Origin: a virus
Lineage: Duplodnaviria; Caudoviricetes
DNA: 64,000 nucleotides
Direction: 5' to 3' (one strand)
Virus record (IMG/VR): IMGVR_UViG_3300033066_001396
Location: 32,001 to 96,000 of that record
The notes beneath the pieces were generated by a model, which was given only the letters and a program-made list of their open reading frames with translations, was not told the origin of the DNA and did not search any database. Position 1 is the first letter of the stretch. Each line of letters begins with the position of its first letter. Shown here one piece after another: positions 22,211 through 46,548 of the stretch. A program made the position numbers and the translations under genes.

Positions 22211-22363
22211 AACCTACTATTGTCGATGTGGGTGGGTAAAATCATTTCCGCTAACGGAAAACGGCTTGCTGATGTCAGCACAAAAGTTTAATAAGTGTAC
22301 TTCTGTTGGTTTAAGCACATCAGCCCTGCTTTTGCCAACATAATGTTGGGCGTAGTTTTTCTT

Positions 22364-22555
22364 ATGGAAATTAAAATTGATAGAAACGAAGAAAGAATGG
22401 AAGTCAAAAAAATTAAGATTTTCACTCAAAATAAAGAGTTCACCATTTACATTGACAAGTTTGGTGAATTGATTGTAAACAAAGAGCAATACGGAAAGGA
22501 AGAAAGCGGCATTGTTGTTAGACCTAAAGTGTCTAATGAAATTGGGTTGTCTTAA
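22364..22555 (+). CDS. hypothetical cassette protein
   Basis: ORF between GTTGGGC and GCCCAAC boxes. Confidence 0.6.
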   Translation: MEIKIDRNEERMEVKKIKIFTQNKEFTIYIDKFGELIVNKEQYGKEESGIVVRPKVSNEIGLS

Positions 22556-22623
22556 AATTACGCCCAACGTTTCCGCTATGAGTAGTGGCGGTTTTGGAAC
22601 TACTCACTATCAAAATACAATAA

Positions 22624-23730
22624 ATGACAATAGAAAGCACAAACGATAATAACAGCACGAACACCGCCATTACTTATAGCGATTGTTATGCACAGGTTTT
22701 TTCTCGTCTTTTTTTAGGGGATTGCCTTATTGAAAGCGATAAAATTGAAAATTATTCAGTTGATATGATTTTAACTGATTTACCTTATGGCACAACTGCT
22801 TGTAGTTGGGATGAGATAATACCATTTGAACCAATGTGGAAAATGTTTTACAGAGTATTGCGACCAAATGGATTTATAGTATTAACTGCTTCGCAACCAT
22901 TTACAAGTAAATTAGTAAGTAGTAATATTGAAAATTTTAGTCATAATTGGGTTTGGAATAAGAAGCGAGGAACTGGACACTTATTAGCTAAAAAGCGACC
23001 AATGATGGCAAGTGAAGATATAGTTGTATTTTCAAATGAATTAAAAAAACACGATAACACTGGAGAAAACCCTGTACGAGAATATTTAGTAAATGAGAAG
23101 AAAAAAAGCGGAATGACGAACAAGGATTTCAATTTGCTATTTTCAAAATACACTAATAAAGAAGGATGTATAAATAGAAGTGTGATTGAACATTATTGGG
23201 GTAAAGCACAATTTACATTTCCAACACAAGAAATTTATGAGAATGTATTGCAACCTACGGGGTATTTTCAACAACCATATTCATATATTTATGAAATAGG
23301 CAAACCATACAGAGAAAATAATAATAAACTACTTGGCGAAAAATACCCAAGAGTTTTTAACCCACAAATGAGAGAAAGAAATAAACCAAGATTATCAAAA
23401 AATAATGGTAATACAGAAGTGTATGGTAATCAAAATAAATTTAATGGTGAAATACTTGAGGAAAGTTATCCGATAAATATAATTGAATTTGATAAAAGTG
23501 GACATTCAAATATGTTGCACCATCCAACACAGAAGCCACTTGAATTATTAGAATACTTAATAAAAACCTATACCGATGAAGGAATGATTGTACTTGATGC
23601 AACAATGGGAAGCGGTAGCACTGGGGTCGCTTGTAAAAACAGTAACCGTTCTTTTATCGGCATAGAAAAAGACGAAGCATATTTCAAAATAGCAGAACAG
23701 CGAATAAATGCACGGACGCTGTTTTCTTAA
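22624..23730 (+). CDS. N4-C/N6-A DNA methyltransferase (beta class), cassette-borne
   Basis: GDCL, ILTDLPYG, HPTQKP, LDATMGSGSTG, GIEKD; ATG lies in the loop of the upstream hairpin site. Confidence 0.93.
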   Translation: MTIESTNDNNSTNTAITYSDCYAQVFSRLFLGDCLIESDKIENYSVDMILTDLPYGTTACSWDEIIPFEPMWKMFYRVLRPNGFIVLTASQPFTSKLVSSNIENFSHNWVWNKKRGTGHLLAKKRPMMASEDIVVFSNELKKHDNTGENPVREYLVNEKKKSGMTNKDFNLLFSKYTNKEGCINRSVIEHYWGKAQFTFPTQEIYENVLQPTGYFQQPYSYIYEIGKPYRENNNKLLGEKYPRVFNPQMRERNKPRLSKNNGNTEVYGNQNKFNGEILEESYPINIIEFDKSGHSNMLHHPTQKPLELLEYLIKTYTDEGMIVLDATMGSGSTGVACKNSNRSFIGIEKDEAYFKIAEQRINARTLFS

Positions 23731-23739
23731 ACTTGTGCA

Positions 23740-23800
23740 TAACATAGAGATTGACGAAATATGAACATACAACTAATTAGCAATAAACCAATTGTATTCC
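23740..23800 (+). repeat. array-terminal 61-bp repeat, copy 1
   Basis: 54/61 identical to 46488-46548 by manual alignment. Confidence 0.9.
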
Positions 23801-23824
23801 TAAGTTAAAAACAAAACACTACAT

Positions 23825-45297: not shown

Positions 45298-45451
45298 CGG
45301 TAGGGCTTTGCGATGTGTGGGCATCGAAGCACAAAAGCTGAATAACCCACAAAAGCATCATAGAAGTACGATGCTGAATATTAGTACTTCTGCCACATAT
45401 AGCAAAACCCCTGTTATATGCTGTGCTTTCTTAGGGGTGTAAAATTTAGAT

Positions 45452-45790
45452 ATGGCAAAAACAGTCAAGTTACAAGAACTAAACAGACAATATGAATTTG
45501 TCTGTAATGAATGGGTAAGAAAATTTTGCAATAAACAGCAAATTGATTTTGATGGTTGGGTAGGTGATGAAGTTGGTGGCATTGCTTCGTTTGCTTGTCA
45601 ATATTTTTTCAATTTGTCTGATATTATTTTAGACTTAAACACAAAGCAACCAAAAGGTAATATTTTAGATTGGCAAAGTGAAGATGTTGATTTTAATATG
45701 TTCAATGAAAAACAACAACATATTAATTACAAATCTTACACAATGGGTTTAAGGCACGAACAATTAAAAAATGTAAGCAATGAAAAGTAG
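45452..45790 (+). CDS. hypothetical cassette protein
   Basis: ORF inside the 45413-46128 cassette. Confidence 0.7.
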   Translation: MAKTVKLQELNRQYEFVCNEWVRKFCNKQQIDFDGWVGDEVGGIASFACQYFFNLSDIILDLNTKQPKGNILDWQSEDVDFNMFNEKQQHINYKSYTMGLRHEQLKNVSNEK

Positions 45791-46103
45791 TTTAAGATTA
45801 CCGATAAGGATAAAAGCAAAACACAAATTAATGAAATGGGATGTTGTATTAAACCCTGTATTCTTTATGTATCATAATGCTTTTGAGGTAAAGGTAATTA
45901 AAGGCAGTTTGTCAAGTAGCATTTTTTGCTGTAAAATATCTGAATTTGAATATAACTGGTATGCTAAATGTCAAATATGGTTTATATGGAAAATATACTG
46001 GTGTCGTAATGTTTTTTGGCGATATGTAAGGTATCAACTTCCTTATAAAATTAGGATGTATTTTAAAACGAAACAAGCTATGTCCGATGACTTGCCATTT
46101 TAG
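45780..46103 (+). CDS. hypothetical cassette protein
   Basis: Second ORF inside the 45413-46128 cassette. Confidence 0.6.
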   Translation: MKSSLRLPIRIKAKHKLMKWDVVLNPVFFMYHNAFEVKVIKGSLSSSIFCCKISEFEYNWYAKCQIWFIWKIYWCRNVFWRYVRYQLPYKIRMYFKTKQAMSDDLPF

Positions 46104-46202
46104 AGTGCTGCACAGCATAGCATATAACGGTAGGGATTTACGCTCGTTATTTTTAGCGGGATTAGAAGCAAAAACTTTAATAAACAACTAAATATAAATA
46201 AA

Positions 46203-46490
46203 ATGAAACAGACATCAAAAAAAGCGAAAATGCCCGCTAAAAATAATGGCGTTAAATCTATTGTTAGCAGCAGTAGCGTGTTCATAAATGACCGTTACTC
46301 TCATTTGAAATTCAAAACAATGGCAACACCAACTCAACTAACTATTGGAATGATGGTGCAGATTTGTGAAAGCAACAAACAACCATTAAGTTGGGAATGG
46401 AATGAGATAACAGTTGAGTTGCTAAATAAATTGTTGGTGATGCCATCCGATAAATACAAATGGATACGGATACCGAGCTATTGCTGCTAA
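46203..46490 (+). CDS. hypothetical cassette protein
   Basis: ATG in hairpin loop; TAA inside the closing GCTAAC box. Confidence 0.65.
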   Translation: MKQTSKKAKMPAKNNGVKSIVSSSSVFINDRYSHLKFKTMATPTQLTIGMMVQICESNKQPLSWEWNEITVELLNKLLVMPSDKYKWIRIPSYCC

Positions 46491-46548
46491 CATCTGTATT
46501 GACGCAATATGAACATACAACTACTTAGCAATAAACCAATTATATTCC
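46488..46548 (+). repeat. array-terminal 61-bp repeat, copy 2
   Basis: 54/61 identical to 23740-23800. Confidence 0.9.

Follow-up and report, generated by a model that had tools for sequence, protein, structure and literature searches.

The window analysed here is a stretch of 64,000 nucleotides, positions 32,001 to 96,000 of the phage record IMGVR_UViG_3300033066_001396. Five cassettes were found in the 124,566-base phage contig, each bounded by 15-nt inverted repeats (arms) that begin with GTT on the left and end with AAC on the right, and they form two arrays (Table 1). In the first array, cassette B encodes a methylase whose in-frame ATG at 22624 is inside the loop of the hairpin 5′ of the cassette; the arms of cassette B are also seen in 12 viral contigs. 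In the second array, the cargo of cassette C is a C5 cytosine methyltransferase whose stop codon is the TAA within the right arm, and the same cassette also holds an HNH open reading frame (44508-45155) in a different frame. Given that the flank of array 1 copies that of array 2, both arrays terminate in one common sequence, without a hairpin.

Table 1. Coordinates of the cassettes, hairpins, arms and flanking sequences in the window
Feature	Position	Strand	Details
Orphan right arm ATCATTTCCGCTAAC, head of array 1	22241-22255	+	T11′ = base 22245; left partner not found
Hairpin 5′ of cassette A, short (89 nt), partly decayed	22256-22344	+	T at b15 = base 22330; partial nhmmer match, E 1.3e-4
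Cassette A	22345-22568	+	left arm 22345-22359 (G11 = 22355); right arm 22554-22568 (T11′ = 22558)
Cassette A ORF	22364-22555	+	63 aa; no Pfam family
Cassette B hairpin, 116 nt	22569-22684	+	inner-arm T.G pairs 22670(T)/22585(G) and 22675/22580
Cassette B ORF, N6/N4 DNA methyltransferase	22624-23730	+	
Cassette B	22685-23743	+	left arm 22685-22699 (G11 = 22695); right arm 23729-23743 (T11′ = 23733)
61-nt flank right after last AAC of array 1	23740-23800	+	89% copy of 46488-46548
Possible relic left arm GTTAGCGGCTGGCGA	34313-34327	+	14/15 identity to left arm in locus L015
Orphan right arm GTGCTTGCCTATAAC, head of array 2	43392-43406	+	T11′ = base 43396
Cassette C hairpin, 117 nt	43407-43523	+	inner-arm T.G pair 43509(T)/43424(G); in-frame ATG in loop at 43444
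Cassette C	43524-45298	+	left arm 43524-43538 (G11 = 43534); right arm 45284-45298 (T11′ = 45288)
Cassette D hairpin, 114 nt	45299-45412	+	inner-arm T.G pair 45398(T)/45315(G)
Cassette D	45413-46128	+	left arm 45413-45427 (G11 = 45423); right arm 46114-46128 (T11′ = 46118)
Cassette D ORFs, two, unknown family	45452-45790; 45780-46103	+	
Cassette E hairpin, 134 nt, atypical	46129-46262	+	no T at b15; ORF start 46203 in loop
Cassette E ORF	46203-46490	+	stop = TAA of right arm
Cassette E	46263-46491	+	left arm 46263-46277 (G11 = 46273); right arm 46477-46491 (T11′ = 46481)
Flank after array 2, second 61-nt repeat copy	46488-46548	+	doubles as start of ORF 46509-46706

All inverted pairs of GTT plus 12 nt and 12 nt plus AAC were listed, allowing at most one mismatch and a separation of at most 5 kb. 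The five cassette pairs all match at 14 of 15 positions, and the sole mismatch is always at position 11, where the left arm has G and the right arm T on the + strand; by our own arithmetic, the chance of five out of five falling at one position with one base combination is ∼(1/144)^5. The only other pairs in the window, 622/4338 and 7043/10914, are mismatched at position 6 and agree with what chance would give, and the same search of the rest of the contig gave no further pair. The full listing bears out the original prediction, made from the sequence alone, that five pairs match 14/15 with G11 opposite T as the only mismatch. Its statement that the arms share almost nothing besides GTT/AAC is corrected, as the family consensus also has R at position 4, GC at positions 8-9 and T at position 12. 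The AAC boxes ending at 22255 and 43406, said to carry T, are genuine right arms, each with T at 11′ and a hairpin on its 3′ side; no partner for either was found in the contig. Of the unpaired G11 half-sites put forward, those at 42045 and 42505 fail as evidence and carry no weight because GTTN7G is little more frequent in the window (465 occurrences) than expected (428). The half-site at 34313 resembles a known left arm, but searches found neither a partner arm nor a 5′ hairpin half.

A table of mismatch positions in a larger sample had been set beforehand as the test that could refute a fixed mispair; the positions are not random and the refutation failed. The 147 viral loci gave 134 unique pairs with no more than one mismatch, and in 107 of these the mismatch was G/T at position 11; the remainder were mostly AT-rich chance pairs. 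The same combination was seen in 147 of 164 pairs from 120 loci of Bacteroidota genomes. When cassettes were defined solely by an nhmmer model of the hairpin (n=182), position 11 of the right arm was T in every one, with G as the partner in 174, C in 6, T in 1 and A in 1. The rule is therefore T opposite anything but A, and the original wording of a ‘wobble’ is refined accordingly: the invariant is T on the AAC-bearing strand facing a non-A base, usually G, and wobble is not required.

Complementarity of the outer stem spans exactly positions 1-15 and collapses at position 16. Every variable position of this 15-bp stem covaries, and position 11 is practically never Watson–Crick (A.T in 1/182). 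A cassette's own arms form 13.6 of 15 Watson–Crick pairs, whereas neighbouring non-cognate arms of an array form 8.1, a value equal to that of randomly paired arms. The AAC and GTT triplets do not vary, and Y/R occupies position 4; positions 5-7 deviate from YYY/RRR, so the expectation that cassettes end at imperfect hairpins with RYYYAAC/GTTRRRY-type boxes is met apart from these three positions. Position 10 is often T.T, or there is a bulged base, next to the mispair. The hairpins share a consensus and are 79-82 or 115-120 nt long across the family. The anatomy of the site, the invariance at position 11 and the covariation of the arms are shown by these data.

We lean towards a unit made of hairpin, GTT arm, gene and AAC arm, in that order; the 15-nt arms, as its two strands, would make up the outer arm of an integron-like site, to which a recombinase binds. 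The alternative in which the downstream hairpin belongs to the gene's cassette (the classical crossover between G and TT, on the + strand) was rejected because the methylase cassette keeps its upstream hairpin in differing neighbourhoods and because arrays stop right after AAC, without a hairpin. A protein-level cause of arm conservation was also rejected; by our reading, all three reading frames of the left arm are used in one cassette or another. Relative to the strand bearing the T.G mark, phage genes are sense in 172 cases and antisense in none, with the site upstream of the gene, whereas genes in Bacteroidota chromosomes are antisense in 193 cases and sense in 11. The strand of the mispair is thus set by site geometry and not by the coding strand or mRNA. 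The classical layout, with genes antisense to the folded strand and the site downstream, is absent from the phage cassettes but present in the Bacteroidota chromosomes.

The inner stem carries a mirror-image T.G at the same distance from an AAC-like box as in the outer arm, which extends the original reading to the inner half-site. Numbering the inner arm so that b5 is position 1, position 11 is T in 94-99% of sites, with G as its partner in 65-77%. Because 5-16% of sites have A opposite this T, only the outer arm obeys the non-A rule strictly. Inner and outer arms have a common consensus of A3, T10, T11 and A/C12-13; the mirror mark is thus shown, and the outer stem is best read as an Xer-type binding arm. 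The folded strand rebuilds a dif-like core of 11 + 6 + 11 bp: arm 1 is formed by outer-stem positions 2-12, the centre measures 6 nt along the 3′ strand and arm 2 has the same consensus. Extra unpaired bases (2-5 nt, mode 4) are on the 5′ half, directly 3′ of AAC. Two inverted arms of ∼11 bp around a centre of 6-8 bp, as expected of an Xer/dif-type core, are found in the folded strand only. With the arms left out, the T.G strand gives a more stable fold than its complement for 260 of 321 viral and 196 of 268 bacterial hairpins.

No array in the window is headed by a recombinase gene and insertion site. A PF00589 search of the phage contig gave no match, and searches for tyrosine recombinases and Y1 transposases in the contig and five close relatives found none; a phage-encoded enzyme of these kinds is therefore rejected here. 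PF01797 (Y1 HUH TnpA) had no match in the contig and four relatives, and the test for an IS200/IS605-type hairpin transposon is unmet. A tyrosine recombinase was also absent from 14 of 18 relative records that were at least 90% complete. As this phage and most of its complete relatives lack such an enzyme, cassette activity here is unproven. A helicase-anchored search for syntenic relatives found none. Elsewhere, in 7 viral records and 14 bacterial loci, the AAC end of the array is occupied by a recombinase of 267-294 aa or a homologue of it; examples are the genes at 7346-8152 of locus L162 and 7638-8441 of locus L163, and Flavobacterium has homologues too. These proteins match XerA, XerC and XerD best, although below every NCBIfam cut-off, and the IntI model TIGR02249 matches them in two pieces, skipping profile positions ∼179-238. 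The linkage of the arrays to Xer-like genes lacking the IntI-specific segment is shown. No protein in five genomes holding such sites exceeded the TIGR02249 cut-off, and the expectation, for a classical integron, of an IntI with the additional segment is not met.

The sites resemble classical attC sites and IntI integrons (class 1 attC, Vibrio VCR; Bouvier 2009, PMC2727003; Nivina 2016, PMC5027507) in having tandem promoterless single-gene cassettes, imperfect hairpins bounded by AAC and GTT with one folded strand favoured, an outer box split by the crossover and hence complementary across the cassette, and a recombinase gene at one end of the array. They differ in that the outer stem is 15 bp rather than ∼7, strand asymmetry comes from T facing a non-A base at position 11 in each half-site, together with a bulge of 2-5 nt beside AAC, the linked enzyme is of the short Xer-like type described above, and the phage genes, carried by the folded strand, begin within the hairpin loop. 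Classical strand marks are extrahelical bases on the L′′ arm, the 3′ half of the recombined strand (PMC5027507); such a mark is absent here, where the extra bases are on the opposite, 5′ half. This contrast rests on PMC5027507 and not on a census of classical arrays of our own.

In the literature searched, no account was found of 15-bp arms, the position-11 rule or an Xer-like recombinase for such arrays; the only related report concerns phage CALINs (PMC9892861). A CALIN is at least two attC sites within a few kb without an integron integrase, as called by IntegronFinder or HattCI models, and the window holds two clusters, of two and three hairpins, and no recombinase. Polaribacter phage P12002L has cassettes of the same family with methyltransferases, likewise with sites but no integrase; it was called a CALIN, an attC cluster lacking integrase, and filed as ordinary attC with ‘divergent directions’ (PMC9892861). 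The arms, the position-11 rule, the mirror mark and the Xer-like recombinase are not part of that account. A P12002L site was recombined in Escherichia coli by IntI1 on one strand only (PMC9892861), and by our reading of the primer table in that paper the recombined strand is the one bearing the right arm ...GCCTAAC. Set against this, IntI1 is a foreign enzyme and the hairpin of the site is not a typical member of the family.

Xer/dif sites likewise have 11-bp arms and a 6-bp centre, and the E. coli dif arms GGTGCGCATAA and ATTTAACATAA (PMC3025954) are similar in sequence to the arm consensus found here, (A/C)TTGCnnnTAA. However, dif is a duplex site with T:A pairs, whereas here T faces G, the centre is bulged and the sites bound mobile cassettes in arrays. 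The attP(+) core of CTX phage exists only after a single strand folds, as is the case for the core here. PeSL (Promoter-stem-loop) shuffling cassettes of T4-type phages (Arbiol et al. 2010) share with the present cassettes small accessory genes, a hyperplastic phage region and a stem-loop before each gene; they are reportedly conserved repeats acting via homology, unlike the cassette-specific covarying arms and exact AAC/GTT boundaries seen here.

In the mechanism we propose, a cassette would be excised as a circle, making the right arm, the cassette's own hairpin and the left arm contiguous on the + strand, and these would fold into one long hairpin that rebuilds the dif-like core. The outer stem would supply arm 1, the 6-bp centre would have its 2-5 extra bases just 3′ of AAC, and the foot of the inner stem would be arm 2. 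In both arms, the strand running 5′ to 3′ towards the centre and ending in an AAC-type box bears T11, opposite a base that is almost never A. A small Xer-like tyrosine recombinase would read T11, presumably cutting between AA and C as in integrons. With G in place of A opposite T11, the stem would stay closed while the complementary strand would get C for T, so that only one of the two folded strands, and one of the two mirror-image AAC boxes, would be a substrate. The T11 mark would then do the work of the extrahelical bases in classical attC. As the phage encodes no recombinase, the enzyme would have to be supplied in trans, by a host array or a different phage.

Among the alternatives, the one that survives best is a duplex end label, although we consider it unlikely. 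Here, G versus A at position 11 would mark the left and right ends for a protein binding double-stranded DNA and set the direction of insertion or excision, with mispair and folding being irrelevant. In its favour, G and T are each invariant bases, so that sequence and geometry cannot be separated, and C or T can substitute for G, meaning that wobble geometry is not required. Against it, there would be no reason for nine variable positions in arms 100-3000 nt apart to stay complementary, and both the mirror mark of the inner stem and the better fold of one strand are left unexplained.

Two further explanations appear very unlikely. The mispair could tune stability by weakening the stem, either to restrain cruciform extrusion or to allow melting once strands have been exchanged, without a role in recognition. 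The T.T or bulge that often adjoins the mispair does regularly weaken the local helix, but a weak point needs neither a fixed base (T in 182/182), a fixed strand and a fixed distance in both arms, nor any avoidance of A alone as the partner. Alternatively, these could be ordinary attC sites used by a classical IntI of the host, with the longer arms and the mispair as lineage quirks. The AAC-hairpin-GTT layout, the cassette-specific R-box complementarity and the activity of IntI1 on the P12002L site (PMC9892861) agree with this. However, the IntI cut-off is unmet in the five site-holding genomes, the array-linked enzymes lack the IntI insertion and the unpaired bases are on the arm opposite to the classical extrahelical bases (Nivina 2016, PMC5027507).

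The remaining two are all but excluded. Inheritance of a neutral mismatch from one ancestral G/T site is in keeping with the relatedness implied by the hairpin consensus, but a single G to A transition would restore the pair and is seen in only 1 of 182 cassettes, and positions 5-7, 10 and 13-15 have fully turned over with compensation. A G.U pair in an mRNA helix around each gene, for processing or translation control, is suggested by the phage pairing strand being the coding strand and by start codons in hairpin loops, but is contradicted by the Bacteroidota chromosomes, in which the mark is on the non-coding strand (193 antisense versus 11 sense) and the mRNA would have C.A, and Rfam matches tRNAs only, so the test for a structured RNA is unmet.

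We therefore return to the mispair as a mark for strand choice and for the half-site in a non-classical, integron-like site class read by an Xer-like recombinase. This is the reading we prefer, with moderate confidence, with protein contact, cleavage point and strand choice all being inferred. Where exactly in the invariant YAAC the cut would fall cannot be assigned, and experimental data for this site class acted on by its own enzyme are lacking. The comparative data support the original inference of a class distinct from attC whose longer outer stem, with its fixed mispair, acts in structure-based recognition or strand selection, although the function itself is only an inference.

A bolder reading is that Bacteroidota and their phages have an integron-like system for gene capture in which strand choice is encoded by T facing a non-A base at position 11 in each half-site. 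This system would have arisen separately from IntI integrons or kept a pre-IntI state, and in it a plain Xer-like enzyme lacking the IntI insertion would read a dif-like core present in only one folded strand. We regard this as possible, with the balance tipped slightly against it. If it is true, changing G11 to A should either make both strands substrates or kill the site.

The signature GTT R nnn GC n G … T n GC nnn Y AAC, together with 15-bp covarying arms, finds hundreds of mobile cassettes in Bacteroidota and the phages of these bacteria, including both DNA methylases of the phage studied here. In classical integrons, the strand is chosen through flipped-out bases that an IntI-specific part of the protein recognizes, whereas here one fixed mispair and an ordinary Xer-like enzyme apparently suffice. 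This gives a simple, testable single-base rule for how a tyrosine recombinase may pick one folded strand, and it bears on the origin of integrons from Xer systems.

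We noted that all 15-nt arms in the window beginning with GTT and having a reverse complement ending in AAC within 5 kb, with at most one mismatch, included five pairs matching at 14 of 15 positions. In each, the sole mismatch was at position 11 counted from GTT, with G in the left (GTT) arm and T in the right (AAC) arm. The original prediction, made from the sequence alone, had claimed an invariant G.T mispair at this position in five cassette-flanking repeats; the claim held, and the script recovered exactly these pairs. Two additional pairs in the window mismatched at position 6, consistent with chance background, and no further arm pair meeting the same script criteria was found in the remainder of the contig. 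The spacers from each AAC to the next GTT are 89–134 nt long and fold as long imperfect hairpins. The two gene-cassette arrays concerned are both short and lie in a viral record of 124,566 bases (estimated 80% complete). Nearly all genes between ∼8 and 58 kb are on the + strand, in a region that also holds phage-type replication genes and three tRNAs. One of these has a CUA anticodon; in other respects the phage can be read well under the standard code.

Comparison loci were gathered by methylase homology and two DNA patterns. The 147 viral loci (1.28 Mb) gave 134 unique pairs with at most one mismatch, of which 107 had a sole G/T mismatch at position 11, the others being mostly AT-rich chance pairs. 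The 120 genome loci, almost all Bacteroidota (Flavobacterium, Pedobacter, Chitinophagaceae, Cytophagales and others), gave 164 such pairs, 147 of them with the sole position-11 G/T mismatch. Because the search patterns contained the left-arm G, a second census identified cassettes solely by an nhmmer hairpin model (up to three arm mismatches). The right-arm partner of position 11 (11′) was T in 182/182 cassettes, facing G in 174, C in six, T in one and A in one. The mismatch position across homologous sites is not random, and position 11 dominates. These statistics, like the anatomy of the sites, are shown directly. One site-bearing MAG (G056, the genome behind locus L173) is labelled Gammaproteobacteria and is assigned by the genome tool to a class of very small genomes (0.7–1.8 Mb); possibly it is mis-binned, or else the site family extends beyond Bacteroidota.

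Arm pairing was ∼95–100% at positions 1–9 and 12–14, ∼78% at positions 10 and 15, and only ∼10–25% from position 16 onward. T.T was frequent at position 10, and a minor cassette class had a bulged left-arm base directly before the mispair. The two arms of a cassette formed 13.6 normal pairs out of 15; non-cognate arms facing each other in an array formed 8.1, equal to random combinations, and T.G at position 11 was retained in 99% of these hybrid pairs.

In 260/321 viral and 196/268 bacterial hairpins (arms excluded), the T.G strand, which has T in the AAC-bearing arm opposite G, gives a more stable fold than its complement. Relative to this strand, phage cassette genes were sense in 172 cases and antisense in none, whereas genes at the Bacteroidota genome loci were antisense in 193 and sense in 11. 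The gene strand is thus opposite in the two groups, and the mark therefore tracks site geometry; the antisense genes exclude an mRNA feature as its explanation. The hairpin is upstream of the gene in phages (viral loci L001–L167) and downstream in Bacteroidota chromosomes (genome loci L169–L288).

The bases of the hairpin 3′ half were numbered upstream from GTT (b1, b2 and so on). The inner stem extends from about b3 to b21, and b15 is T in 94–99% of sites, with G opposite in 65–77%. With b5 taken as position 1, the inner arm has C1, A3, T10, T11 and A/C at 12–13, which is the outer-arm consensus. The folded strand therefore reads as arm 1 (11 bp), a 6-nt centre and arm 2 (11 bp), with the 5′ strand carrying a further 2–5 bases (mode 4, usually GTTT) directly after AAC. 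In each arm the T belongs to the strand heading for the centre and terminating in an AAC-type box. This mirror mark is present in three of the window's four full hairpins. The arms of Escherichia coli dif (PMC3025954) resemble the cassette-site arm consensus (A/C)TTGCnnnTAA, a likeness that serves as a lead and does not amount to a test.

Features of the arrays and related loci (window positions unless stated)
Feature	Position	Remark
Array 1 (cassettes A, B)	22.2–23.8 kb	
Array 2 (cassettes C, D, E)	43.4–46.5 kb	
Hairpins with inner-arm mirror mark	22670/22585, 43509/43424, 45398/45315	
Array-end 61-nt copies	23740–23800, 46488–46548	89% identical; begin at TAAC of last right arm
In-frame ATG/ORF starts in hairpin loops	22624 (B), 43444 (C), 46203 (E)	
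HNH endonuclease ORF	44508–45155	inside cassette C C5 methyltransferase, other frame
tRNA with CUA anticodon	18342–18414	amber suppressor type
P12002L methylase cassette	L168 (phage P12002L) 6052–6826	T.T at both 10 and 11; very short hairpin, 43 nt

Both arrays start with an orphan right arm and hairpin, and both end immediately 3′ of an AAC in copies of one 61-nt sequence, with no hairpin. At array 2 this sequence opens a 65-aa ORF, and the array 1 copy is truncated; an insertion target may have been duplicated, or the repeat may have been left by recombination between the array ends. Methylase cassette B (arms GTTATGCACAGGTTT and its near-complement) was found again in 12 viral contigs, where the upstream hairpin accompanies it and the neighbours differ on both sides. 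Since the hairpin moves with the cassette and the arrays end after AAC without one, the cassette unit is hairpin, GTT arm, gene and AAC arm, and exchange takes place, on the + strand, where the hairpin borders AAC. The 15-nt arms are identical in the 12 contigs despite divergent proteins (∼36–74% identity, mostly 41–53%, by tblastn best segment) and at least three hairpin types; arm conservation exceeds that of either gene or hairpin.

Cassettes B, C and E have an in-frame ATG inside the upstream-hairpin loop and a stop codon in or at the right arm. Many other loci likewise have start codons within A-rich hairpin loops. The opening ATGAATATAGAAAGCAC (MNIEST…) is common to unrelated cassettes, so translation includes the hairpin 3′ half and the left arm, with each of the three frames used in one cassette or another. 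The product of cassette B is an N6/N4 methyltransferase and that of cassette C a C5 methyltransferase; the HNH ORF within the cassette C gene means that the mobile cassette itself carries a second selfish gene. Cassettes A, D and E matched no Pfam family.

Neither the contig nor five close relatives contained a tyrosine recombinase or Y1 transposase. PF00589 matched in 12 of 50 further viral records, in seven as small proteins (267–294 aa by ORF call), and in 7/7 of these the array is directly upstream in the same orientation. In six, 40–52 nt separate the last detected AAC from the start codon. L167, the seventh, has a gap of 924 nt that includes another hairpin and left arm as well as an AAC box lying 59 nt upstream of the start codon. 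At 14 of the 120 bacterial loci, a recombinase homologue is on the AAC-end side, near the last detected AAC in most and ∼0.6–1.6 kb off in four; one of the 14 had no detected cassette. The gene is convergent with the array in bacteria and co-oriented in phages. The array-linked recombinases best matched XerA, XerC and XerD, below every cut-off. The integron-integrase (IntI) model matched them in two pieces, skipping ∼60 profile positions, and had no match above cut-off in five genomes holding such sites.

Virulent phages, among them the cultured Polaribacter phage P12002L with its methyltransferase cassettes, have been reported to carry clusters of attC, the integron cassette site, without an integrase; one P12002L site recombined with attI1 under IntI1, on a single delivered strand only (PMC9892861, 2023). 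Integrons are rare in Bacteroidetes according to IntegronFinder 2.0. P12002L carries cassettes of the window's family, with G.T at position 11 in one and T.T in one; the methylase cassette at L168 6052–6826 is the published attC1, where IntI1 gave no verified attI1/attC junction (PMC9892861). We found no description of the 15-bp arms, position-11 rule, mirror mark or Xer-like enzyme in the literature searched.

The original prediction also inferred a structural or strand-selection mark. Protein contact, cleavage at AA|C and strand choice are only inferred. In the mechanism we propose, T11 would be a base read by each recombinase protomer, and A would be barred from the position opposite: it would place T on the complementary strand and so make that strand and the left arm's mirror-image AAC box equally good substrates. 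A G partner would close the helix while giving the complementary strand a C; the few sites with C or T as partner also fit a non-A requirement. In attC, strand choice depends on extrahelical bases (PMC5027507, PMC2727003), whose role the T.non-A mark would replace. A tyrosine recombinase of any kind occurs in just 4 of 18 near-complete viral records, and most phage arrays, this one included, would therefore need the enzyme in trans.
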